From the NCBI RefSeq assembly GCF_000012805.1, contig NC_007484.1, forward strand, positions 3,060,001 through 3,092,000: a stretch of DNA of 32,000 nt, written 5' to 3'. The translations under genes were made by a program, and so were the position numbers. Each line of letters opens with the position of its first letter. Within the stretch, counting starts at the first letter, position 1. The stretch is from Nitrosococcus oceani ATCC 19707. GTDB taxonomy: Bacteria > Pseudomonadota > Gammaproteobacteria > Nitrosococcales > Nitrosococcaceae. Below the pieces are notes generated by a model, which was not told where the DNA came from, did no database searches, and saw only the letters and a list, made by a program, of their open reading frames with translations. Below, piece after piece: positions 3,169 through 19,791 of this stretch.

Positions 3169-4119
3169 TTATTGGCTTCCTCGCCGATTCAGCCAAACGA
3201 CCAATCCCTGGGCGTTCAAGCTGATATCCATTCCCAGTAGAGTGTCGCGCCGGCGGTCATCCTGGGGGAAGCCGTGGGCATCCAAGCGAGTCCATAGGTA
3301 AGCGCGCAGCCTCCGCTTAATGGCCCCTAACCGATCTTCCTCTCCTTCACAATCCTTCGCCAAAGCAACAAAAGCATCGAGATCCCGATGTAAATCTTTA
3401 GCAAGCCTCTTAAGATCGGTAACCCGGCTGTAATGAGTCAAGTAAATCCCTTCTGGCTCATATCCCATGAGACGTTCGATAGAGGCATGGGCTGCGTCCG
3501 GGTCAAAATGAACGGGCGTGGTGGCGGGAAAAATAAATTCCCCCGCCAGGGTATCAAAATCCCGGTAGGAAATACCAAAGGTATCGCCAGCAAATATGCC
3601 CCGGCTGTCCCGGTCAATAATACAATAATGGTGCAAGGCATGCCCCGGGGTATGAATAAACTTCAAACGACTTCCACCCAGCTCCAGCCACGCCTCATCC
3701 TCTATGGTAATAATACGGTCTGCCGGTATAGGAACTACCTCTCCATACAAACGCCTGAATATTTTGTCCCCATATACGGCTTTCGTTCCCGCAACGAGCT
3801 TCTCGGGATCGATAAGATGGGATGCCCCTCGTGGATGCACCACCACTTGTGCGTGGGGAAGCCGCCGCACTAACTCGCCCGCGCCGCCAGCGTGATCCAA
3901 GTGGATATGAGTAAGTAATATGTAATCTATCTGTTGGGGGGTAATTTTCAGTGTTACCAGTGCGTCCATGAGCCGGGATACGGAAGGCGTGGGTCCGGTA
4001 TCTATAAAAGCAGCCCGTCCCTGGCGAAGAACGAGGTGGCTAGCATCCATTTCAGGACGCACAAAACCCGTATCAATGGCGGTAATACCGCTAGGAAAGG
4101 AAATAATATTCTCCTTCAC
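3169..4119 (-). CDS. MBL-fold metallo-hydrolase
   Basis: 316-aa ORF with HxHxDH motif (THIHLDHAGG), downstream TPGH and a further Asp/His; GTG start. Confidence 0.9.
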   Translation of the reverse strand: MKENIISFPSGITAIDTGFVRPEMDASHLVLRQGRAAFIDTGPTPSVSRLMDALVTLKITPQQIDYILLTHIHLDHAGGAGELVRRLPHAQVVVHPRGASHLIDPEKLVAGTKAVYGDKIFRRLYGEVVPIPADRIITIEDEAWLELGGSRLKFIHTPGHALHHYCIIDRDSRGIFAGDTFGISYRDFDTLAGEFIFPATTPVHFDPDAAHASIERLMGYEPEGIYLTHYSRVTDLKRLAKDLHRDLDAFVALAKDCEGEEDRLGAIKRRLRAYLWTRLDAHGFPQDDRRRDTLLGMDISLNAQGLVVWLNRRGSQ

Positions 4120-6041: not shown

Positions 6042-8291
6042 CTAATGCTCCCTTAACCGTTCAGCCTCACGGCGCACAGCCTCACTGCCAAAGTGCAAAA
6101 CCAGGGGGCGCAGGGCCTGGCGCAGGGCTTCAATCACCTGGACCCGGCCTGAAAGTTCTAGGACCGCGGCGGCCTCTCGCCAACTCCTTTTCTGCAATAC
6201 CTTGACGATTAACGCATTCCTCTCCATTTCCCTCAAAAGTGCTTCGCTCTCAGGCACCGGGAGCGCCCCGCAAGCCAGCTTCCAAATAGGCGCAATACAC
6301 ACCTCGTACATACGCCTGCCAAAGGCAAAAGCCAGCACATCACACCAGTCCTGGCGATCCAAGGACAGTGGGCTGGCCTGACCCCCGCAGCGCAGAAAGC
6401 AAGCTGCAAGAGGGGGCTCTAGCTCCCGGAGCGGATCTGATAGCTGGTGAGGTAGATGTGCCTGGAAGCGATGACGGGCTACTTTCACTAGCGCCTGACC
6501 CGAATTTGACAGTGGATAAAGAACAAGAGCGGAGTGGGCACCACTCGTGGCACCCCGTTTCACACTGAGGCGCACCGGCAGAAAATCTAGCCGTTCCCAA
6601 AAACGCAGCAGCTCCTCGGTAGCGCCAAAACTACTTCCTAAATAATCGAGATTTTCCGCGCTTAATGCCTTGATCAGTATCCCCACCAATTGGCTCCCAA
6701 GGCCCTGGTTTTGCACAGTGGGATGGACGGCAATACGCATTATCCGGGCGCACCGCAGCCTGGGCGCCTGTGCCAATCCCAAATGGGCCGCCAAGGATTC
6801 CGGAAGTAAATGCCCATGGGGGCGGATACACCCTTCCCATATTCCTCTCGCTGTCTCCTCATCAAATCCTCCCTCCAAAGCCAGCAAGGCCGTAGCTACT
6901 ACATGTCCCCGATAGCGCATTACATACACCAGCAAATTAGGGCCATCAAGCAAATGGCGAAGGTCGTAAGGCCGGGTCTGATAATGGGCCAGCACCAGTA
7001 AACCGAAGAGTTCGGAAAGGGTAGCCTCATCCTTTACCAGAACTTCCCGGTCCAGCTGTTCCACCAAAGTGTTTTCAGGACGCGCTAGCGCAACCGCCGA
7101 AGCGGGTGCAGCCTTGGCATTTAGCAGCAGCGCTTGAAAGGCGAAATGCTCCAAGGGATCGCCGCTTCTCCAACGGATGGGCGTCTCTAACCGCAGTGCC
7201 TTCCATCCCCGGGTCCGTTCATCCAACACCTTGTGAAAGCGAAGGGCAAACCCCCGCCCGGTCCCTTCATAACCATGAATGGTGGTGGCAAACGCAATAC
7301 GTGGGTAACGCTGGAGCAGCTGTTCCAGCAAAGGGGTAGGAAGAGCGGCCGCCTCATCCACAAGCAGTAGGTCCGCGGGCTGGAGAGTACGAATAAGTGC
7401 ATCGGGGGCGGCAAATTCCAGGCGTGCCCCATGGAGAGTAAGCACCGTTCTGGAAACGCTGGCTTGGGGCAATAGACGTTGGGCATGCCGGAACAGGGGC
7501 ACTACCGTATCCAACCGCGGTCCCGTCACGATGATGCGCTTGAGTCCCCGCTGCAATAACCGCGCTGCTCCGATTCCCAAGGCCGCCGACTTGCCTCGAC
7601 CACGATCCGAGGTTAGCACCACGGGCCGCCGCCGTTGTCCCGTCACAACTTTTACAATAGCCTCCACTGCTCGGCGCTGATCCGCTGTACGGCATTCCCC
7701 ATCCTCTTCTTTATCAGCAAGAGGGCTATCGCTGATTCTGATATTAGCTGAAGTGACTTGCTGGACTCTAGGGAACCCTTTTTCTTGCTCTATGAATACC
7801 ATCCCTTCTGCTCCACGGATGAGCCGTACCAAGCGTTCAATAAAACGACCGGTAACATCGGTAATTCGATAGGGAAACGTCACAATACGGGCATGCTCAG
7901 GATCAGGGAAGCTTGGCCACGACTCTAGGGGCGGGGTAAGCAACAGCAGGAGCCCGCCGCCCCGGATAGCGCCAGTAATAATTCCGAAGGCATCTAAATC
8001 AAAACCACTGTGGGCATTAAACACCAGGGCATCCACTTCTTGCCCCAGAAATTGATGCGCCTTAGCTGCCTCCAATTTCCATACCTTTTCAGGGGCAGAA
8101 GCAGAAATCCATGGAACCCGCTCCAATGAAGCACCTTCCAGGCTTGCTTGGGCGGCTTGCAGACACCAATTTTGATCCCCTGAAAGCACCAAAGCCCGCC
8201 GCTGGTAACTCGCCTTAGCCGCAGTTACCAAAGCGGCCGTTATTTTTCTGAAATTATCCAAGATTTGAAAAGAGAAATAGACTCTGTACAA
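6042..8291 (-). CDS. tmcA: tRNA(Met) cytidine acetyltransferase TmcA (helicase-like ATPase + GNAT)
   Basis: 749-aa ORF. It shares with E. coli TmcA: RRALVLSGDQNWC (E. coli RRLLVLSGEEGWC), Walker A RGRGKSAALG, Walker B LLLVDEAAALP, TIHGYEGTGRGF, HYQTRPYDLRHLLD, and GNAT motif RIMRIAVHPTVQNQGLGSQL. The track start is TTG, so the exact start is uncertain. Confidence 0.9.
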   Translation of the reverse strand: MYRVYFSFQILDNFRKITAALVTAAKASYQRRALVLSGDQNWCLQAAQASLEGASLERVPWISASAPEKVWKLEAAKAHQFLGQEVDALVFNAHSGFDLDAFGIITGAIRGGGLLLLLTPPLESWPSFPDPEHARIVTFPYRITDVTGRFIERLVRLIRGAEGMVFIEQEKGFPRVQQVTSANIRISDSPLADKEEDGECRTADQRRAVEAIVKVVTGQRRRPVVLTSDRGRGKSAALGIGAARLLQRGLKRIIVTGPRLDTVVPLFRHAQRLLPQASVSRTVLTLHGARLEFAAPDALIRTLQPADLLLVDEAAALPTPLLEQLLQRYPRIAFATTIHGYEGTGRGFALRFHKVLDERTRGWKALRLETPIRWRSGDPLEHFAFQALLLNAKAAPASAVALARPENTLVEQLDREVLVKDEATLSELFGLLVLAHYQTRPYDLRHLLDGPNLLVYVMRYRGHVVATALLALEGGFDEETARGIWEGCIRPHGHLLPESLAAHLGLAQAPRLRCARIMRIAVHPTVQNQGLGSQLVGILIKALSAENLDYLGSSFGATEELLRFWERLDFLPVRLSVKRGATSGAHSALVLYPLSNSGQALVKVARHRFQAHLPHQLSDPLRELEPPLAACFLRCGGQASPLSLDRQDWCDVLAFAFGRRMYEVCIAPIWKLACGALPVPESEALLREMERNALIVKVLQKRSWREAAAVLELSGRVQVIEALRQALRPLVLHFGSEAVRREAERLREH

Positions 8292-10673: not shown

Positions 10674-11321
10674 ATGTCTAGGAAAAATCCCATGAACTTT
10701 CAACCCAGCCCTTTACAGGCATTAATCTTGTGGCGGTTACTGACTAGCGAAGGACGAGCCTACCTGACCGATATCCGTCCTAAACCCAAGCGGCGCGACC
10801 GGGAAGCCCTGCTAGAGGCGAAATTTATCGAAGAACAATGGCGACGCAAACCCCAGGGCAGCCGGGCAATCTATGTCCAACTCACCGATAGAGCCTGGGC
10901 TTGGGCCGGAGAACATATGGATGCCAAACTCTCCCATCGGTCCCCGGCGGCAGGCCCTATCCTCCAGAGCTTTCTTGCCCGCTTGCAACCCATCCTGCAA
11001 AGTCGACATATCACGCTGGCGGAAATTTTTAGCTCAACTCAAGCGCCTCCCCCAAGCGAAGATTCGGAACAACAGCTACGGGAGGCCTATTTCCATCTCT
11101 CTGGCGGCGAGAGGAATATTCGAGTTCGGCTCGCTCAACTCCGGCAACAGTTAGGAGCTATTCCTCGTCCCAGACTAGACGAATTATTGCTGAAATTACA
11201 AAGGGAAGGAAAATTGGTGCTGTCTCCTCTCGATGATTCCCGGGAAATTTTACCGGAGGACCAAAAAGCAGCCCTAAGTGTCGCCGGATTTAAGCGGCAT
11301 CTGGTGTATATGCAAAAATAA
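10674..11321 (+). CDS. Uncharacterised protein with two winged-helix-like segments; first gene of a two-gene module
   Basis: 215-aa ORF. The N-terminal segment (LQALILWRLLTSEGRAYLTDI...LLEAKFIEEQ...IYVQLTDRAW) and C-terminal segment (VRLAQLRQQLGAIPRPRLDELLLKLQREGKLVLSPLDD) resemble wHTH units, separated by a Pro/Ser linker. The ATG at 10692 has an AGGAAA about 6 nt upstream and may be the true start. The stop lies 8 nt before the next gene's ATG. Confidence 0.7.
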   Translation: MSRKNPMNFQPSPLQALILWRLLTSEGRAYLTDIRPKPKRRDREALLEAKFIEEQWRRKPQGSRAIYVQLTDRAWAWAGEHMDAKLSHRSPAAGPILQSFLARLQPILQSRHITLAEIFSSTQAPPPSEDSEQQLREAYFHLSGGERNIRVRLAQLRQQLGAIPRPRLDELLLKLQREGKLVLSPLDDSREILPEDQKAALSVAGFKRHLVYMQK

Positions 11322-11328
11322 TCAGCCA

Positions 11329-14300
11329 ATGGACGAATATAGAGTACTAAAAACCGTTAATTTTGACTGGACCATGCAATTACAAAGCGTATGGCGCAAC
11401 TCGCCGCTACACGTACCGGGTCTCCATGAAAACCTGCGAACCGAGCTTATGGAAACCTTGAAAGAGAGGATGGGAAGCCAGGATCAAAATCCCCTCGGGC
11501 AAATCATTACGGGCCCAGCAGGTGCCGGGAAAACCCATCTCCTTAGCGCCATACGCCAGGAGGTTGCCGCCCTCCCGGCCTGGTTTGTATTGGTGGATAT
11601 GACCGATATCAAGGATTTCTGGGAAACAGTGCTACTGGGATATCTCAACTCCCTGCAGCAAGCAACTTCAGGAAACCGACCCCAATTTCAAAGCCTCCTA
11701 AAACACCTCCTAAACCCGGACGTAAAACCCCAAAACCCTTTTTCTTCCTTTTATCGAACTCCGTCTCGGTCGAGAAAATCCCCACTCCAATGGCTGACGG
11801 CGCTGTTAGCGGGCAAAAAAGCCCAGCGCCAGGAAGCTGCTCCTGCTACGCCCCGGCAAATCGCGGAATATGGGGACAAGGAACTCGCCCAAGTCATCCG
11901 GCAGACTATCAACCGCCTGAGCACGCAATACCCGGAGGAGATCCGGGCCCATCAAGACGCCCTCCGCGCTTTGATGCTGCTCAATTCTAACGATCTCGAG
12001 CGCGCCAACGTAGGCTACAGTTGGCTCCAAGGCATGGCTATTGACGAAACTGATCGGCATCTCTTCGGCTTTTTATGGCCCCAGCGGCAGCCTTCTGAAA
12101 TCGTAAAGTCCTTGTCCTGGCTAATGAGCCGGTATGCACCTACCCTGCTGGCTTTCGATCAATTAGATGCCATTATGAGCCAACACCATATCACTACTGC
12201 CAGCTCTGGCGAAGGGGAGCGGATGACGGGGGAGCAGCGCGCTTCCCAAGCCATCATCGAAGGGATTGCGGACGGCTTTATGGCCGTCCGGGATACGGTC
12301 TATCGCACCGCCACCATCTTAGCTTGCCTGGAAGGAAGTTGGGAAATATTGCGAAAGGGGAGTCTGAAATCGGCGACCGATCGGTTTGCTTCCCCCCAGC
12401 CCCTACCGCCCATTAATAATGCCACGCTCGCAGAGGAAATCATCGCCCTTCGCCTCGCTCATGCTTACCATGCCCACGGCTTTACGCCCCCCTATCCCAG
12501 CTGGCCTTTCCAACCACAAGTCTTTGCCAGCGCGGCCACGCTCTTACCCCGGGAATTGTTAAAACGGTGCGAGGAGCATCGGCTTCAATGTTTAAGCAAG
12601 GGCGAGGTCATAGAGCTAGCCTGTTTCGAATCGCCACCAGAAGCCACCGAGACCTTAGCTACCATCCGCCCAGATCCCGGGCTTGACCACGCTTACCAGG
12701 AACTCTGCCGCCAGGCCCCCATACAGGAACTGCTATCCGAGGAAGCAGAAGATGAAGTACTGGGGATGCTGATACCGGCCCTATGCCGCTGTCTCCTGCG
12801 GGAAACCCCACTGCCGAAAAGCAGGCGGGGAGTGGTGGATACCGAATTCCCAGGCGATAAAAACTACCGCGCTCTTCATGCCCGGCTCCGGATCATCGAC
12901 TCCAGCCAAGAGAATCGAGAACAACATTACTGCTTTCGTGCTTTGCAAAAAACCCACGCCACCGCCTATCAAAACCGTCTTAACGGAGCCCTTACTGCTT
13001 CCGGGATTGACTCCAAGCTGCCTTTCAGAAGGCTTATCATCGTCCGCACCACCCCTCTGCCCTTGGGCAAGGTTACCCGGGAAATCACTGACAAATTTCT
13101 CCAGGCAAAGGGTAAATTCGCCGCGCCTAACGAACAAGATCTAAGAACCATGTGGGCGCTCCATAAGCTTGAGCAACAAAACTTGCCTGGCTTTGAAGCA
13201 TGGCTTCGCGAGCGCCACCCCGCAACTCAACTCCAATGGCTTCAGGAAACAAAAATTACCGAATGCCTTGCTGCTGATGCATTCCCTCTGGAAAATAACC
13301 TGCCTTTAAATGCAAAAGAGAACACGGATATCTGGGCCAAACTCCCGGCCCCAAAACGGCACAATTATAAGGCCACCACTCCCTCCTATCCGTCGGCCCT
13401 GCCGGTAGGGAAAATTCTGTCCAACCCTGCCGAAAAGATAACTATCCCCTTGCCCCTTCTCACACAATATACTGGAATATTGGCGGGGAGTGGTTCGGGC
13501 AAGACGGTGCTCTTGAAAAGATGGGTGGAAGAAGCCGCATTGCTAGGTATCCCCTCCATCGTGATAGACCGTACCAATACGCTGGTGTCTTTAGGGGAAC
13601 AGTGGCCCGCCCCCCCCACCTCCTGGACTCCCGAAGATCAGGAAAAGGCGGAACATTATCATGCCAACAACGAGGTGATTATCTGGACCCCCGGACAAGC
13701 AGATGGTAATCCCTTGCAATTAGAGCCATTGCCCGATCTCGCTTCGCTCCTGGAGCAGCCGGAAAAATTCCAGCAAGCTCTTGAAATGGCCCAATCCACC
13801 CTGAAAGAAATCGTAGCCCCCGGCAAATCCGCCCATTCAGACTATAAAATGGACGTTCTCACTGCGGCGCTAAAACTCTTTGCTATCCAAAAGGGGAAAA
13901 CCCTGCCGGATCTTATCGCCATTCTCTCCCACCTACCGGCGGAAATCAGTACCAGTATCTCCAGCGCCGCTCGCCTGGGGAGCGAAATGGCCCAGCGTCT
14001 GCAAGCGGAGATACAAAACAATCGCTTGTTCTATCCGGAAAGCCCTTTCCTCGATCCTGGCTGCCTCTTTAAAGGAACTTCAGCAAATAGGAGCAGGATA
14101 TCCATCATCAACCTGGCCGGTTTACCTGACCTTAAAACCCAGCAGCAGTTTCTTAATCAGTTAGCCATAACCCTGCTAGGCTGGATAAAACAGCATTCCG
14201 CCTCTCCTTCCATGCCAGTACAGGGTTTTTTGATACTGGACGAGGCCGAGGATTTTATCCCTGCCGAACAATCCACCCCCTGCAAAGACAACTTGCTAAA

Positions 14301-14649
14301 GCTTGCGGAATACGCCCCTACCGGCGGTCTCGGATTAGTTTTCTCTACCCAAAACCCCAAAAATATTGCCCCCCCTATCATTTCTGACTGCTTCACCCAG
14401 TTTGCTGGGAAAGCTAGCGCACCGGCCATCATCGAAGCCATACGGGAGCAGTTTAAAATACGCGGTGGCGAGGAGGACGACATCCCCGTCCTGGAAGCTG
14501 GTCATTTTTACCTCCATACAGAGGGGATGCCAGCCCCGGTAAAAGTGGCGATACCCTGGTGCCTCTCCTACCATCCCCCCCACCCTCCGGAGAAGGCCGA
14601 GGTCCTAAAACGAGCCGCCGCCTCTCGCCTCCAGGCCCAAAATCCATAA
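11329..14649 (+). CDS. Large (about 1106 aa) dual P-loop NTPase: N-terminal ORC/Cdc6-like AAA+ module plus C-terminal HerA/FtsK-like (DUF87-type) module
   Basis: - Module 1: Walker A GPAGAGKTHLL (11511-11543), Walker B-like LLAFDQLDAI (12145-12174), and a lid-like PPINNATLAEEIIALRL.
- Module 2: Walker A GILAGSGSGKTVLLKR (GSGSGKT at 13486-13506), Walker B FLILDEAEDF (14227-14256), and the HerA-typical GLGLVFSTQNPKNI.
- Start taken at ATG 11329; the track ORF starts at a GTG at 11278 that overlaps the upstream gene. Confidence 0.85.
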   Translation: MDEYRVLKTVNFDWTMQLQSVWRNSPLHVPGLHENLRTELMETLKERMGSQDQNPLGQIITGPAGAGKTHLLSAIRQEVAALPAWFVLVDMTDIKDFWETVLLGYLNSLQQATSGNRPQFQSLLKHLLNPDVKPQNPFSSFYRTPSRSRKSPLQWLTALLAGKKAQRQEAAPATPRQIAEYGDKELAQVIRQTINRLSTQYPEEIRAHQDALRALMLLNSNDLERANVGYSWLQGMAIDETDRHLFGFLWPQRQPSEIVKSLSWLMSRYAPTLLAFDQLDAIMSQHHITTASSGEGERMTGEQRASQAIIEGIADGFMAVRDTVYRTATILACLEGSWEILRKGSLKSATDRFASPQPLPPINNATLAEEIIALRLAHAYHAHGFTPPYPSWPFQPQVFASAATLLPRELLKRCEEHRLQCLSKGEVIELACFESPPEATETLATIRPDPGLDHAYQELCRQAPIQELLSEEAEDEVLGMLIPALCRCLLRETPLPKSRRGVVDTEFPGDKNYRALHARLRIIDSSQENREQHYCFRALQKTHATAYQNRLNGALTASGIDSKLPFRRLIIVRTTPLPLGKVTREITDKFLQAKGKFAAPNEQDLRTMWALHKLEQQNLPGFEAWLRERHPATQLQWLQETKITECLAADAFPLENNLPLNAKENTDIWAKLPAPKRHNYKATTPSYPSALPVGKILSNPAEKITIPLPLLTQYTGILAGSGSGKTVLLKRWVEEAALLGIPSIVIDRTNTLVSLGEQWPAPPTSWTPEDQEKAEHYHANNEVIIWTPGQADGNPLQLEPLPDLASLLEQPEKFQQALEMAQSTLKEIVAPGKSAHSDYKMDVLTAALKLFAIQKGKTLPDLIAILSHLPAEISTSISSAARLGSEMAQRLQAEIQNNRLFYPESPFLDPGCLFKGTSANRSRISIINLAGLPDLKTQQQFLNQLAITLLGWIKQHSASPSMPVQGFLILDEAEDFIPAEQSTPCKDNLLKLAEYAPTGGLGLVFSTQNPKNIAPPIISDCFTQFAGKASAPAIIEAIREQFKIRGGEEDDIPVLEAGHFYLHTEGMPAPVKVAIPWCLSYHPPHPPEKAEVLKRAAASRLQAQNP

Positions 14650-14910
14650 GGAGATTCGACTATATTTTTACCAAGGCCCACTCTCTCTGGAAGAGACTAT
14701 TCTTATGAATTTTCTCACCTTTCTGGAAACTTTTCCAAAAGCTTTACGGTTTTTTACAAATAAAACTTGCAAAATAAATATATTTATTCTTTAATAGGTA
14801 CTAAGAATACGTTTTTATAGCAACAGTCTGGAGACAGCAAACGTTTTTTCATGAGTGATTCCCTTCGATAGCATCAAGCTGGTCCAAAGAGTATTTTCTT
14901 TGGCCTTTAA

Positions 14911-14941
14911 GCCTCGCGATGATTTCCCGAGGCTTTTTTTT
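14911..14941 (+). terminator. Rho-independent terminator-like hairpin about 260 nt downstream of the large ATPase gene
   Basis: Stem gcctcg (14911-14916) pairs with cgaggc (14928-14933) around an 11-nt loop, followed by a run of 8 T (14934-14941). Confidence 0.5.
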
Positions 14942-15040
14942 ATGCAACACAACCGGCAACAGTATGAAATCAGCCTGATCCAGAGCTTGCTGTCCAGATT
15001 TTCCTCTCCTGCTTCCCGCCTTGTCAGCAGGTGATTATCC

Positions 15041-15072
15041 AAAAAAGGATGGAGAACCTTTATAGGCTCTCC
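15041..15072 (-). terminator. Probable terminator of the TRL-like lipoprotein gene
   Basis: On the minus strand, ggagagcc-tataaa-ggttctcc forms an 8-bp stem with one mismatch, followed by atcctttttt (complement of 15041-15050). It lies about 30 nt after the stop at 15101. Confidence 0.5.
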
Positions 15073-15100
15073 AAACGAAAGCAGCTGTATTAAGCCAAAT

Positions 15101-15409
15101 CTAGTTGCCGTACACCGTCAGGGTGTAGTTGCCGATGATGCCGAGGATGTTACGTGCATGCCAGTCAACGTGGGTAACTTCTTGAATACCCCCATTAGCT
15201 TTAGCCGTTTCAATACTACAGTCGCCAGTCGCTACGAGTGACAGAACACTCTGACATTTGGCAGTACCCGTTTTAGTGGCGGTGGCGTTTGAGGTAGCGG
15301 TTACGGGAAGATCCAATTCTGTGTACAGTCCACCGATTGGCCTAGAAGTTGCACACCCACCAAGAGCTATAGAAGCTGCAATAATTCCACTAGCAAATAT
15401 TTTTTTCAT
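15101..15409 (-). CDS. TRL-like small lipoprotein
   Basis: MKKIFASGIIAASIALGGC is a signal peptide with a lipobox (LGGC). The mature part has the pattern typical of the TRL-like family (GGLYTELDLPVTAT..., C...GDCSIE..., GNYTLTVYGN). Start taken at ATG 15409 rather than the track's 15460. Confidence 0.8.
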   Translation of the reverse strand: MKKIFASGIIAASIALGGCATSRPIGGLYTELDLPVTATSNATATKTGTAKCQSVLSLVATGDCSIETAKANGGIQEVTHVDWHARNILGIIGNYTLTVYGN

Positions 15410-15687
15410 GGTTAACCCATCCTTTCTAGATTTTTTGGATTTCCTCAAATGCAGGACCACTCATTCCCGCCCATCTTAGTATAGTGTATAGGAAAATAAA
15501 TACTTCCTTCTTTTTTATAAGAGGATGAAATACGGGAAATTCCTTGGGCCGTTAACCACCCCGACAAGTAATCAGAAATTGACAAAATGATGAAGGGGTT
15601 GAGTTAAGCCGAAGGTGAATGAAGGAGGCTGGAAATAGAGAAGAGTTGATGGGGCGGCATCAAGCAATGGTGTGGGCCACCTTTCCC

Positions 15688-17058
15688 TCAGTGCCGACCA
15701 GCGGAATAATCGTTAAAGTAACGCCGTGCCGCAGCGTTTACTTTCGGCGCCAGCAGCAGCGTGGCAGTCATGGTGGGAATGGCCATCATGGCATACATGC
15801 CGTCGACCAGCCCGATTATGGTTTTCAGCGAGACTACAGATCCAACAACAATAAGTACTCCGTAGATCCAGACATAATGGTGCTGATACTCGGCGCCAAT
15901 GAGAAAGCCGAAGCACTTAGCACCGTAGTACCAAAAAGTAATGATAGTGCTCAAGCTGAGAAAGATAACCAGCAACGTCAGTAGGTAGGCCCCCGCACCG
16001 GGCAAAGCATCCTCAAAGGCTTCGGCAGTCAGCGTCACACCCGTGGCCTGACCCTGCCATACGTCTGTAATAAGGATCACCAGTGCAGTGCAAGTACATA
16101 CCAGCAGGGTATCGATGACTGGACCCAGCATAGCCACCAGCCCCTCGCGCACTGGCTCGCTGGTTTTGGCCGCCCCGTGGGCCATGACCTCAGTACCGAT
16201 ACCCGCCTCGTTAGAAAAGGCGCCGCGGCGGACTCCCATGAGAATCACCGTGCCCAGGGCGCCACTGGCAACAGCATGCCCGGTGAACGCATCCGAAAAA
16301 ATCAACGCGAGGGCGCCGGGTATCTGCGCTGCGTGTTGCACGAGAATCACAAGGGTCAGTAGTAGATAGAATAGCACCATGCCCGGGACCAGGGCCGCAG
16401 TGACCCTGCCAATGCGCTGGATATTGCCCAGGATAATGGTCAGCGTTGCGGCAGCAAGAAGGGCACCAATAAGCAGATCATAACCAAAGTGCGCATCGGC
16501 ACGCGCCCAGCCCAAAGGAATAGCGAAGACGTCCCGGGTAATCTGCACAAGCTGGTTGGCTTGGAAGACAGGCAGTGTACCCACCATCCCGGTAACCGCA
16601 AAGAGACCCGCAAGCGGTAGCCAGCGGCGGCTCAACCCCTCACGGATCACATACATCGGGCCACCCTGCCATTCACCGCGGCTGTCGCGGCCACGGAACA
16701 TAATCGCTAGGGTGCAAGTATAGAATTTTGTGGCGACGCCGACTATCGCCGTCACCCACATCCAGAATATGGCGCCCGGCCCTCCCATCGTAATGGCTAC
16801 CGCTACTCCTGCAAGGTTGCCCAAACCAAGGGTGCCGGACAGTGCCGTTGTCAGCGCCTGGAAGTGGGGGATCTGGCCGGTCTCATCCGGGTCGTCGTAC
16901 CTGCCCAGAAGAATGCCGATACTGTGGCGAAAATGCAGATAGGGAAGGCAGCGCGAGTAGAAAACGAGGAAGGTACCCCCGCCAACCAGCAATAGGACCA
17001 GAGGCATGCCCCACATGAAGGCGGCGAAGGCGGTGAACCAATGTTCCAGTTGTTGCAT
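15688..17058 (-). CDS. Alanine/glycine:cation (sodium) symporter, AGCS family
   Basis: 456-aa polytopic ORF with AGCS-typical motifs: FQALTTALSGTLGLGNLAGVAVAITMGGPGAIFWMW, GGPMYVI, RGAFSNEAGIGT. Confidence 0.9.
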   Translation of the reverse strand: MQQLEHWFTAFAAFMWGMPLVLLLVGGGTFLVFYSRCLPYLHFRHSIGILLGRYDDPDETGQIPHFQALTTALSGTLGLGNLAGVAVAITMGGPGAIFWMWVTAIVGVATKFYTCTLAIMFRGRDSRGEWQGGPMYVIREGLSRRWLPLAGLFAVTGMVGTLPVFQANQLVQITRDVFAIPLGWARADAHFGYDLLIGALLAAATLTIILGNIQRIGRVTAALVPGMVLFYLLLTLVILVQHAAQIPGALALIFSDAFTGHAVASGALGTVILMGVRRGAFSNEAGIGTEVMAHGAAKTSEPVREGLVAMLGPVIDTLLVCTCTALVILITDVWQGQATGVTLTAEAFEDALPGAGAYLLTLLVIFLSLSTIITFWYYGAKCFGFLIGAEYQHHYVWIYGVLIVVGSVVSLKTIIGLVDGMYAMMAIPTMTATLLLAPKVNAAARRYFNDYSAGRH

Positions 17059-17138: not shown

Positions 17139-17681
17139 ATGGTAGAGAGAGAAAAAGCACTACTCTATTATTTTGCCTATGGTTCGAATATGGCCGTGGA
17201 GCGCCTGCGGGCGCGCGTTCCCAGCGCCAGGCGGATCGTTACGGCCCGTCTCATGGGCTATGCCTTACGTTTTCACAAGAAAGGCATGGATGGTTCCGGC
17301 AAGTGTGATGTGGTGTCCACTGGCAATCCTGCAGATTGCGTACACGGCATAGTATTTGAAATCGCCACGGCTGAAAAGCCGGCATTGGATCGGGTGGAAG
17401 GCCCCCGCTATATACAGCAGAATGTGCAACTGGCGTTGGCTGACGGCAATTGGGTCGACGCCTTTCTCTACGTGGTGGCGGACAAGCGACGTTTCACGGA
17501 TGCGGCTATGAAACCCTTCTGCTGGTACAAATATCATGTGTTATACGGTGCGCGCAGTAACGGACTGCCCGGTGACTACATCGCCCGTATAGAAGCCGAA
17601 CTGGAGCAGCCAGACGGTGACGACCAGCGCCGGGCGCATGAAATGCGTATCTACGCCAAAGGTGCAGCCTGTGGGCCGTGA
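17139..17681 (+). CDS. Gamma-glutamylcyclotransferase-like (AIG2/GGCT-fold) protein
   Basis: YYFAYGSNM motif near the N-terminus, GIVFEI, E in LDRVEG. Start taken at ATG 17139 with GGAGAA 5-6 nt upstream; the track ORF starts at 17100. Confidence 0.8.
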   Translation: MVEREKALLYYFAYGSNMAVERLRARVPSARRIVTARLMGYALRFHKKGMDGSGKCDVVSTGNPADCVHGIVFEIATAEKPALDRVEGPRYIQQNVQLALADGNWVDAFLYVVADKRRFTDAAMKPFCWYKYHVLYGARSNGLPGDYIARIEAELEQPDGDDQRRAHEMRIYAKGAACGP

Positions 17682-17908
17682 ACGCCCATAGGCACGCCGG
17701 CGATGCGGGTATCCAGCGATCCTCCCGTGGCTATCATTACGCCGTTGCCTAAGTAGCTGCACAACTTCGGGACATTATCATTATCAAAGCGTACGGTTTC
17801 GATACAGGCGAAAAAGGGCTGCCGGAAGTTCATAGGGCCAACCGCGGCGGCAGCAGCGGACGACGCAGTGATCACTCGGCAGTGATACCACGCCAATCCG
17901 CTTGGCGA

Positions 17909-18352: not shown

Positions 18353-18519
18353 TAGCCTCGTACCGCCCCGCGCTGCTCATCGTGGATGCTAAAGTAATCC
18401 TTATCAGACTGATATTGGGATGGGAAATGTTGCAGCCATGGGCTTTATTTGTCGCAGTGTATCCCATAATCTTGTCCTACATTCTTTTGCATCTATTAAC
18501 CCCACATTAAGGAATCGGC

Positions 18520-19791
18520 ATGAAACTTGAGACTATTGCGCTGCATGCAGGCTTTAGCGGCGACCCCACCACTAATGCTGCGACCACACCCATTTACCAA
18601 ACGACCTCTTTTACCTTTGATGACACTCAGCACGGCGCCGATCTATTCGACCTAAAGGTCCAGGGTAATATTTACTCGCGGATCATGAACCCCACCAACG
18701 GGGTACTCGAAGAACGCTTGGCCCAGCTCGAGGGTGGCGTGGGCGCGCTGGCGGTAGCCTCCGGGATGTCAGCCACCACCTACGCGCTCCAAACAATCTG
18801 CCGCACGGGTAATAACATTGTCAGCACCAGTCAGGTTTATGGTGGCACCTACAATCTGTTTGCCCACACCTTGCCCAACCAGGGCATCAATGTACGCTTT
18901 GCCAAACACGACGACTTGGACACGGTTGAGGCGGCTATCGATGAGAACACCCGTGCCCTATTTTGTGAGTCCATTGGTAACCCCGCAGGCAATGTGGTCG
19001 ACATTCAAAAGTGGGCCGAGATCGCCCATGCCCATGGTCTGCCATTGATTGTTGATAACACCGTGGCTACCCCCTTCCTATGCCGCCCCTTTGAGCATGG
19101 TGCGGACATCATCGTCCACGCCTTGACCAAGTACATGGGCGGCCACGGCACCACTATCGCCGGTGCGGTGGTTGATTCGGGCAAATTTGATTGGACTGCG
19201 AACGCTGATAAATTTCCCATGCTTAACGAACCCGATCCCTCCTACCACGGTGTGGTCTACACGGAGGCCCTCGGTCCCGCCGCCTTTATCGGCCGCTGTC
19301 GCGTGGTGCCTTTGCGCAACACCGGCGCCGCGTTATCGCCTTTCAACGCCTTTTTGATTATGCAGGGCCTGGAAACCCTCGGCCTGCGTATGGAGCGTCA
19401 CTGCGAGAACAGCGAAAAGGTCGCCAACTACCTGCAGAATCATGACAAGGTCGCGTGGGTCAACTACGCCACACTGGATGACAGTCCTTACAAAGCCACT
19501 TGCGATAAGATCTGTGGCGGCCGCGCCTCGGGCATTCTCAGCTTTGGCATTAAAGGGGGCATTGAGGGCGGTACCCGCTTTATCGATGCCCTGCAGATGA
19601 TTTACCGTTTGGTTAATATCGGCGATGCCAAGACATTGGCCTGCCACCCAGCCTCAACAACCCACCGCCAACTCAACGAAGAAGAGTTGGCCTCGGCAGG
19701 TGTGAGCAAGGATTTAGTGCGCCTGTCCATTGGCATCGAGCACATCGATGATATCATCGCCGACCTCGAACAGGCCCTGGCCCAGGTGTAA
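18520..19791 (+). CDS. metY: O-acetylhomoserine (thiol)-lyase / sulfhydrylase, PLP-dependent Cys/Met-metabolism family
   Basis: 423 aa. It has the typical N-terminus (ETIALHAG...TPIYQTTSFTF, GNIYSRIMNPT), PLP-lysine motif HALTKYMGGHG, and LVNIGDAKTLACHPASTTH. Confidence 0.92.
   Translation: MKLETIALHAGFSGDPTTNAATTPIYQTTSFTFDDTQHGADLFDLKVQGNIYSRIMNPTNGVLEERLAQLEGGVGALAVASGMSATTYALQTICRTGNNIVSTSQVYGGTYNLFAHTLPNQGINVRFAKHDDLDTVEAAIDENTRALFCESIGNPAGNVVDIQKWAEIAHAHGLPLIVDNTVATPFLCRPFEHGADIIVHALTKYMGGHGTTIAGAVVDSGKFDWTANADKFPMLNEPDPSYHGVVYTEALGPAAFIGRCRVVPLRNTGAALSPFNAFLIMQGLETLGLRMERHCENSEKVANYLQNHDKVAWVNYATLDDSPYKATCDKICGGRASGILSFGIKGGIEGGTRFIDALQMIYRLVNIGDAKTLACHPASTTHRQLNEEELASAGVSKDLVRLSIGIEHIDDIIADLEQALAQV

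Follow-up and report, generated by a model that had tools for sequence, protein, structure and literature searches.

A nuclease-less, two-gene variant of a three-gene double-ATPase family in Nitrosococcus oceani

The gene pair and the domains it encodes

We analysed a 32,000-nt stretch of the genome of Nitrosococcus oceani ATCC 19707 (contig NC_007484.1, positions 3,060,001 to 3,092,000; hereafter the window, in which all coordinates are given unless a locus in a relative is named). It holds a pair of adjacent plus-strand genes, one encoding a small tandem winged-helix protein and the other a large fusion of two ATPase modules, the first of the AAA+ and the second of the HerA/FtsK type. The aconitase gene ends 160 nt before the small gene. 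The small open reading frame (ORF; 10674-11321, +) encodes 215 aa from its first ATG and 209 aa from a second ATG at 10692. Because its homologues all begin at the second Met (MNFQ/MSFQ), which is preceded by an AGGA at a distance of about 10 nt, the gene probably starts at 10692 (10692..11321, 209 aa). After a gap of 7 nt comes the large ORF (11329..14649, +), which, read from the ATG at 11329, encodes a protein of 1106 aa, 99% identical to WP_036502914; WP_011331041/ABA59162 falls in the same 90%-identity cluster. A preliminary description of this DNA, made from the sequence alone, had already picked out both ORFs; its gap of 8 nt is not right, and its 215-aa small protein is probably six residues too long.

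Both P-loop modules of the large protein are complete. The first has a Walker A motif GPAGAGKTHLL (11512-11544, +), a Walker B motif LLAFDQLDAI of the form hhhhDQxD (12145-12174, +) and a lid helix motif PPINNATLAEEIIALRL with an invariant R375 (12406-12456, +). The second has GSGSGKT as Walker A (13486-13506, +), FLILDEAEDF with its DE as Walker B (14227-14256, +) and a sensor/TQxP motif GLGLVFSTQNPKNI (14326-14367, +). All motifs previously quoted are present within one base of where they were placed, the first Walker A having been put at 11511-11543. In an alignment of 30 full-length homologues of the large protein (37-70% identity), the invariant residues are G62, G65, G67, K68, T69, D277, D280 and R375 in module 1, and G722, G724, K725, T726, D971, E972, Q1008 and P1010 in module 2. 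The full-length homologues match at E = 0, and hence the two P-loops are far beyond chance; the observation of two ORFs and two P-loops is confirmed.

An AlphaFold2 (AF2) model of the large protein (predicted local distance difference test score, pLDDT, 83.3) resolves it into six parts. The first is an AAA+ domain with its lid (aa ~34-382; 11428..12474, +), assigned to the initiator clade (DnaA/Orc/Cdc6-like) on AAA_16 and Hda matches and the invariant residues, and carrying a disordered insert at aa 135-168. Family matches to this module all fall below the curated cut-offs and mostly span the P-loop region only. Among 31 homologues, Pfam gives AAA_16 in all 31 and AAA_22 in 16, and NCBIfam gives Hda in 23, IstB in 7 and DnaA in 4, as well as DnaC/DnaI and, in one or two, Orc1/Cdc6. 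NACHT (7/31), nSTAND5 (8/31) and BrxC/D matches are rarer, and Avs2 is marginal. The module had been called ORC/Cdc6-like from the start, and the matches agree with this; as a label drawn from sub-threshold sequence similarity it is reasonable but not proven, and a 'sensor' role for the module is conjecture.

The roughly 400 residues between the two ATPase modules had been set aside as matching nothing recognisable. No Pfam family matches this region in the 31 homologues and a profile search of the PDB finds no relative, but the AF2 model, the alignment and a wider profile search reveal a conserved, structured region rather than filler. Against 1.84 billion representative proteins, the middle-region profile matched 557; the best 150 of these 557 are either proteins of ~1050-1120 aa with the region in the same place or pieces of such proteins. 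The middle region is a family-specific conserved part of the large protein, not a linker. It opens with a helical stretch (aa ~383-470 in the model) between the AAA+/lid and an alpha/beta domain (aa ~474-600; 12748..13128, +), the latter delimited by AF2 secondary structure and conservation. The modelled order of elements in this domain, alpha-beta-beta-beta-alpha-beta-alpha-beta, is a restriction-endonuclease-like topology. The canonical D...(D/E)xK is missing, and H517, E531, H533, R537, R550, R567 and R573 are invariant or nearly so. By this order of elements, and by analogy with a published class of predicted systems (PMC10853773; Nucleic Acids Res 2024;52:1005), we consider the domain a candidate inactive restriction endonuclease (iREase). 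A helical bundle follows (aa ~602-648; 13132..13272, +; AF2 helices at 602-617, 622-629, 636-640 and 643-648) in which W625 and L626 are invariant, and which may be the C-terminal winged helix-turn-helix (wHTH), or plain HTH, of the Orc/Cdc6 module. A disordered linker (aa 650-686; 13276-13386, +; pLDDT below 50) then leads to the second ATPase.

This last part is a HerA/FtsK-type ATPase core (aa ~690-1085; 13396..14583, +). It matches DUF87 at 33.4 bits, above the Pfam cut-off of 23.2, and HerA comes first in both sequence and fold searches of the PDB, bearing out the earlier identification of the module. The profile search is topped by HerA matches at 2e-12, and Foldseek returns HerA-NurA, HerA-DUF4297 and SIR2-HerA at E 1e-12 to 1e-9, with HerA matches dominating the lists for the whole model. 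PADLOC matches the protein to mad8 (E 4e-18) and HerA (E 3e-9), the HerA matches being partial and covering only the C-terminal half of the models. Matches in a viral library are to HerA-like, FtsK, conjugative and packaging ATPases, and some homologues have weak Pfam matches to TrwB_AAD_bind, AAA_10 and FtsK_SpoIIIE. Between core strands, the model places a four-helix insert (aa 811-897; 13759-14019, +; helices 811-829, 835-853, 859-867 and 880-897). It has no barrel-sized (HAS-barrel) domain before the HerA Walker A, no transmembrane (TM) segment and no FtsK-alpha.

The small protein had been credited with two wHTH-like segments, and its AF2 model (built on 43 homologues; pLDDT 90.6) does contain two winged-helix (wH) domains, wH1 at aa ~1-75 and wH2 at aa ~123-207, with a long helix between them. 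Support from Foldseek is weak; the best matches (E 4e-3) are to PadR/LmrR/MarR, TFE-alpha and the tandem wH of Pol III C82. No Pfam, NCBIfam or PADLOC family matched, a profile search of the PDB gave wHTH proteins only (all E > 0.03), and neither that search nor Foldseek found any likeness to DndG, SspB or FokI.

The three-gene family and its nuclease-less form

Relatives of the large protein occur in at least 539 species from about eight phyla, as judged from one genome each of 185,579 species, and form 557 clusters at 50% identity. Carriers are found among the cyanobacteria, planctomycetes, alpha-, gamma- and delta-proteobacteria/myxobacteria, Desulfobacterota, Acidobacteria and Actinobacteria, and include the genera Methylobacterium, Xanthobacter, Rhodopseudomonas, Mycolicibacterium and Rhodococcus. 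In 77 of 80 sampled neighbourhoods the small gene is the next gene upstream of the large one and has the same orientation; one of the remaining three is truncated. The pair is hence conserved as a unit, in a distribution that is patchy but wide.

Clustering all neighbouring ORFs revealed a third gene. It encodes ~350 aa and, in 50 of the 76 loci that could be evaluated (the other four of the 80 end too early upstream), immediately precedes the small gene in the same orientation. The C-terminal 100 residues of its product are a DUF559 domain (PF04480, E 2e-8 to 1e-11; also REase_MTES_1575), of the Vsr-type PD-(D/E)xK kind, whose sole PDB relative is 3hrl, an 'endonuclease-like protein'. Across 29 sequences, E243, D277, E288, D290, H295, D304, R305, R307 and D308 are invariant; with its catalytic residues intact, the partner looks like an active nuclease. 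Residues 1-230 are conserved and have no Pfam or PDB sequence match (for example in the gene at L084:853-1902). They include an invariant W176 and the motifs 'LADxA..WPxW', 'PWLxAA' and 'DRxLYGA', and presumably form a domain for docking to the ATPase or to the winged-helix protein. An hhalign comparison of the DUF559 domain with the middle domain of the large protein was negative. Independent gene calls give the same DUF559/small/large operon in Leptolyngbyaceae JSC-12, Schlesneria and the metagenome contig L089. Beyond the small and DUF559 genes, ORF clustering of the 80 loci yielded no recurring neighbour. One locus, from an uncultured-bacterium metagenome-assembled genome (L004, isolate RI_301), has, directly downstream of the full-length gene, another and shorter paralogue of the large ATPase (13480-15546, +; ~688 aa, E 9e-125), which is a tandem partial duplication or an extra HerA-type subunit.

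The preliminary description had found no nuclease motif in the two proteins. For the window this stands; no DUF559 partner is present among its ORFs or six-frame fragments. For the family it does not, as most relatives carry the DUF559 gene upstream. The two-gene form is also found in N. halophilus, Nitrosoglobus and two further relatives; at least four Nitrosococcus species and Nitrosoglobus have kept both genes intact. The nearest outgroup, L089 (42% identity), has all three genes. In the Nitrosococcus-like locus L088, ~2 kb upstream of the pair, the strand opposite to it (1117-1326, -) encodes a stand-alone DUF559 fragment of 69 aa, perhaps left over from the lost nuclease gene, perhaps a DUF559 remnant of other origin.

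Nor is the loss confined to these bacteria. Nuclease-less loci are scattered over the similarity dendrogram, with two or three blocks in the mycobacterial branch and about 11 isolated cases, and therefore at least 10 independent losses of the nuclease must be assumed. Nuclease-less pairs stay full-length in at least 10 separate branches. Six-frame fragments of at least 25 aa gave no nuclease remnants in the nuclease-less loci, and no substitute effector or fourth gene was found there; the flanks encode P450, thiolase, phosphoketolase, glycosyltransferase and the like.

The N. oceani pair is under purifying selection without the nuclease. Compared with N. halophilus and Nitrosoglobus, the large gene has ratios of nonsynonymous to synonymous divergence (dN/dS) of 0.15 and 0.10, and the small gene ratios of 0.07 and 0.09, in comparisons where dS exceeds 1. 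Synonymous divergence of the pair is like that of the neighbouring aconitase gene (dS ~1.0-1.4 for N. halophilus). Since the ATPase sites and the winged-helix partner are under purifying selection, we conclude that the pair still does something ATP-dependent on DNA. It may capture or exclude DNA without cleaving it, work with a nuclease encoded elsewhere, or have been domesticated to a DNA-handling role.

Genomic surroundings and a small-RNA-like gene

Whether the pair sits at a conserved core position has a mixed answer. In the Nitrosococcaceae the module lies in a loosely syntenic region; in N. halophilus aconitase is three genes off, and an RF-1-family gene lies downstream of the module in three relatives. 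The 17 Mycolicibacterium loci likewise make up two syntenic groups and one singleton. There are no shared neighbours among eight Methylobacterium species, three cyanobacteria, four planctomycetes or four Rhodopseudomonas/Xanthobacter loci. Enrichment near known defence genes, which the preliminary description had raised, is not evident: among 130 neighbouring ORFs of 26 loci, PADLOC finds mad2 twice, and mad3, PDC-S44/S48/S68, AriA and NsnB once each. The commonest Pfam families of neighbours are oxidoreductases, signalling domains and transporters. Overall, the module is accessory and horizontally spread, and is not visibly a resident of defence islands or a plasmid or phage gene.

The pair's context in N. 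halophilus (locus L081) is more mobile-looking than in N. oceani, with PhdYeFM-type antitoxins, an HTH_3/HI1420 pair, and IS605 OrfB/TnpB and Transposase_20 fragments around it (366-959, 1493-1908, 15696-15944, 17494-17838 and 18381-18671).

Downstream of the large gene in N. oceani, the spacer contains a small-RNA-like (sRNA-like) gene (14767-14941, +), recognised by its conserved promoter, hairpin and terminator. The sigma-70-like promoter TTGCAA-17 nt-TTTAAT (14767-14795, +) is nearly identical in four Nitrosococcaceae lineages. Downstream of it come a hairpin (~14880-14906, +), likewise conserved, and an intrinsic terminator (14911-14941, +) with compensatory changes in its stem (GCCTCG/CGAGGC vs GCCCCG/CGGGGC). 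Across the four lineages the gene keeps 83-88% nucleotide identity, whereas synonymous sites of the adjacent genes are saturated. It lies beside the module in N. oceani, N. halophilus (L081:13538-14045), Nitrosoglobus (L082:13451-13640) and the fourth relative (L088:7465-7680); in N. halophilus, ~350 nt are inserted between promoter and hairpins. Rfam gives only a sub-threshold anti-hemB match (26 bits vs a gathering score of 49.5). Hairpin-motif matches in metagenomes were limited to two unrelated, apparently non-bacterial contigs, and we rejected these as chance. The gene stays by the module although the protein genes nearby are not the same in N. oceani as in the other genera; with four related genomes, a link to the module is inseparable from plain synteny and is unproven.

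This also changes the reading of the spacer, which had been thought to contain an orphan terminator. The plus-strand terminator ends the sRNA-like gene, and the terminator-like hairpin and T-run on the minus strand (15073-15050, -), directly downstream of a TRL-like lipoprotein gene (15101-15460, -), is the terminator of that gene.

Elsewhere in the window, a TmcA/NAT10-type tRNA cytidine acetyltransferase gene (6042-8291, -) lies upstream of the pair. A metallo-beta-lactamase-fold gene (3169-4119, -) has an Anti-Pycsar Apyc1 match of 19 bits (cut-off 50), which probably reflects the generic fold.

Possible roles and comparison with known systems

The family closely resembles a class already described by comparative genomics as 'HerA/FtsK capture systems' (PMC10853773). 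Its core domains are an Orc/CDC6 ATPase, an iREase between the AAA+ core and a C-terminal wHTH, HerA/FtsK and an active restriction endonuclease (REase), in single or multiple polypeptides. Two active REase families occur, one of them common to AbiJ. A subset has an extra protein with two to four wHTH domains, and in one version of HerA a 4-helical bundle is inserted and FtsK-alpha is missing. The same paper calls these neighbourhoods 'mobile'. A second paper repeats the class and proposes that the DNA-binding parts target invading DNA, while HerA/FtsK captures it and channels it to the nuclease (PMC12839542). The N. oceani system can hence no longer be called one of an undescribed kind, as was initially suggested; the class is in the literature, and the canonical form of the family has three genes.

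On balance, we favour the view that the pair is the conserved core of an Orc/Cdc6 AAA+ and HerA/FtsK DNA-capture system that has lost its nuclease here, and that its role is anti-invader. We rate this role likeliest because the family resembles HerA-nuclease and HerA-NADase systems and because its distribution is patchy and independent of context. In such a system, the initiator-type AAA+ module, together with the REase-like and helical domains attached to it and with the winged-helix protein, would select particular DNA or load onto it. We infer that the HerA/FtsK module would oligomerise into a ring and pump that duplex, and that in the full form the DUF559 nuclease, docked via its N-terminal domain and physically coupled to the motor, would cut the duplex as it is fed through. 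Such translocation-coupled cleavage, as in HerA-NurA, HerA-DUF4297 and McrBC, could serve to restrict invading plasmid or phage DNA.

Several observations weigh against this view. The Orc/CDC6-HerA/FtsK capture class is itself a computational prediction, and we found no experiment on any family member in the literature. DUF559 occurs 0 times in the text of PMC10853773, literature searches for DUF559 with DUF87 or HerA gave nothing relevant, and accession searches found nothing; the family is likened to the published class by description. The REase fold of the middle domain is read solely from the order of secondary-structure elements in a model. The module seems to have been passed down vertically, at semi-stable positions, in the Nitrosococcaceae and within two or three Mycolicibacterium groups, and the neighbourhoods are not obviously defence islands, the PADLOC matches being scattered single ORFs. 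The family is in 3 of 72,556 plasmid records, two of them megareplicons, and in 0 of 50,697 phage records. Finally, repeated loss of the nuclease with the pair kept is odd for a cleavage system.

Perhaps the functional unit is the winged-helix protein plus the double ATPase, with the nuclease a dispensable add-on, and nuclease-less pairs act without DUF559 cleavage. The pair might then capture particular DNA and extrude or exclude it at the expense of ATP, or catalysis might take place at the invariant His/Glu/Arg site of the middle domain; in the Nitrosococcaceae the tightly linked downstream sRNA-like gene could take part. We consider this rather unlikely, but if true it would be a new mode for HerA-type systems.

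Alternatively, the pair may be a chromosomal DNA-maintenance or repair machine, a HerA-type translocase that the initiator-like AAA+ module and the winged-helix partner load at particular DNA structures, for example breaks, stalled forks or dimer junctions. DUF559, where present, would then be a processing nuclease, comparable to HerA-NurA in end resection or to FtsK-XerCD. This is a serious rival. HerA-NurA is among the best structural matches, housekeeping or metabolic genes flank the pair in the window and many other loci, and there is essentially nothing on plasmids or phages. A maintenance machine would also fit the vertical look and strong purifying selection in the Nitrosococcaceae, the syntenic Mycolicibacterium groups, and a pair that outlives repeated nuclease loss. 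However, the distribution is very patchy for such a role (at least 539 of 185,579 species), and the surroundings change from each species to the next among the Methylobacterium, cyanobacteria and planctomycetes examined. None of the sampled loci shows linkage to Mre11/Rad50, Xer, RecA or further repair genes, and in PADLOC the HerA domain is closest to the defence-type HerA and mad8 models. All in all, we are inclined to doubt it.

It could also be that the N. oceani pair, inert or decaying, is what is left of a three-gene defence system. The window has no nuclease gene and no six-frame trace of one, the closest outgroup L089 has three genes, and a 69-aa DUF559 fragment lies ~2 kb from the pair in L088. 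A decaying remnant would not be expected to have both genes intact in at least four Nitrosococcus species and Nitrosoglobus, all catalytic residues of both ATPase modules kept, and dN/dS values of 0.07-0.15 (though with dS > 1), nor would full-length nuclease-less pairs recur in at least 10 branches. This explanation fits poorly and is quite improbable.

The HerA/FtsK superfamily includes the TrwB/VirD4 coupling proteins. That the module is a DNA-transfer or partition pump serving a mobile element, with a DNA-binding accessory, fits equally poorly and is very improbable indeed: weak TrwB_AAD_bind, AAA_10 and FtsK_SpoIIIE matches in some homologues, viral and conjugative ATPases among the fold matches and the term 'mobile' in PMC10853773 speak for it, but no relaxase, type IV secretion system (T4SS), integrase, transposase or replication gene recurs among the sampled neighbours, only the three plasmid records (two megareplicons) and no phage carry the family, and no repeats or attachment sites were noticed, without a systematic search for them.

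HerA/FtsK motors keep turning up as the chassis of prokaryotic immune systems; their Orc/Cdc6-coupled branch has been a computational prediction only. Our analysis defines one large, clean family of this branch and fixes its three-gene canonical architecture and its catalytic residues. It also shows that the nuclease is repeatedly shed while the double ATPase and its DNA-binding partner are kept under selection, and the three-gene and natural two-gene versions allow DNA capture to be tested as defence, with or without cutting. For N. oceani, the analysis gives a probable role to two 'hypothetical' genes, and adds an unannotated, conserved sRNA-like gene beside them.

Turning to named systems, PADLOC (2023) has none for the pair, the DUF559 partner or distant homologues, and gives only domain-level likeness to mad8 and HerA; that the pair matches no named defence system therefore holds. 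BREX BrxC/D, Gabija and Septu were rejected, as their partner genes are absent and the matches partial or marginal. A conjugative coupling protein or FtsK partition pump was likewise rejected (no TM segment or FtsK-alpha in the model; no relaxase, T4SS or Xer neighbours). Compared with STAND NTPases, the large protein has no repeat sensor domains, and initiator-clade matches are commoner than NACHT/nSTAND5 ones, all of them below cut-off.

McrBC combines an AAA+ ring motor and DNA-binding domain with a separate PD-(D/E)xK REase-fold nuclease that the motor feeds. Its AAA+ clade is not known to be related to that of the large protein, nor is McrBC known to have a HerA module. No sequence similarity was seen, and any likeness to the family would be functional only, that of an NTP-driven motor feeding a separate nuclease.

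From MADS, mad8 is the best PADLOC match to the HerA module (4e-18, and 2e-27 for a cyanobacterial homologue), covering most of the 314-position model. However, mad8 is a short stand-alone ATPase and the likeness is at domain level only. Membership of MADS was rejected, because no mad1-7 gene, including the methyltransferase, is in the operon, whose neighbours in the window are aconitase and TRL; mad2- or mad3-like neighbours occur in only one or two of the 26 loci.

With SIR2-HerA, DUF4297-HerA and HerA-NurA, the large protein shares the HerA ATPase fold and motifs in its C-terminal 400 residues, and the family shares a ring ATPase partnered with a nuclease. Sequence identity to the HerA of the NurA, SIR2 and DUF4297 complexes is only 12-17%. 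The AAA+/REase-like/helical half and the disordered linker here replace the HAS barrel, and the partners are a tandem-wH protein and, in relatives, DUF559 rather than SIR2, DUF4297 or NurA. Membership of SIR2-HerA or DUF4297-HerA was rejected, as neither a SIR2 nor a DUF4297 gene is in the window or the 80 loci.

DndFGH/DptFGH resembles the family in plan, with a multidomain protein ending in HerA/FtsK, a multi-wHTH protein (DndG, a triple wHTH) and an REase domain, and PMC10853773 puts DndH-type and capture systems in one conceptual family. The matches are marginal only (DndH at E 0.013 in one homologue; DptH, PDB 7es4, at E 0.65). Membership was rejected, there being no PADLOC match to DndF or DndG, and no DndF kinase, SWI2/SNF2 remnant or phosphorothioate genes.

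The closest likeness is to the Orc/CDC6-HerA/FtsK capture systems. The capture systems have an Orc/Cdc6-family AAA+ domain and, after it, a degenerate REase-like domain and a helical/wHTH region; the large protein has an AAA+ domain whose family matches, all below cut-offs, agree with that clade, and candidates for the other two. Both have a HerA/FtsK module with a four-helix insert and without FtsK-alpha, and a separate winged-helix protein, the other domains being fused in one polypeptide here. Most relatives of the N. oceani pair also share a separate, active-looking REase-fold nuclease. They differ in that the relatives' nuclease is DUF559/Vsr-type, unnamed in PMC10853773, that the winged-helix protein has two wH domains and no detected likeness to DndG, SspB or FokI, and that the copy in the window has no active nuclease. 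The class was thus already known as a published prediction; what is new is a nuclease-less, two-gene variant of a three-gene family.

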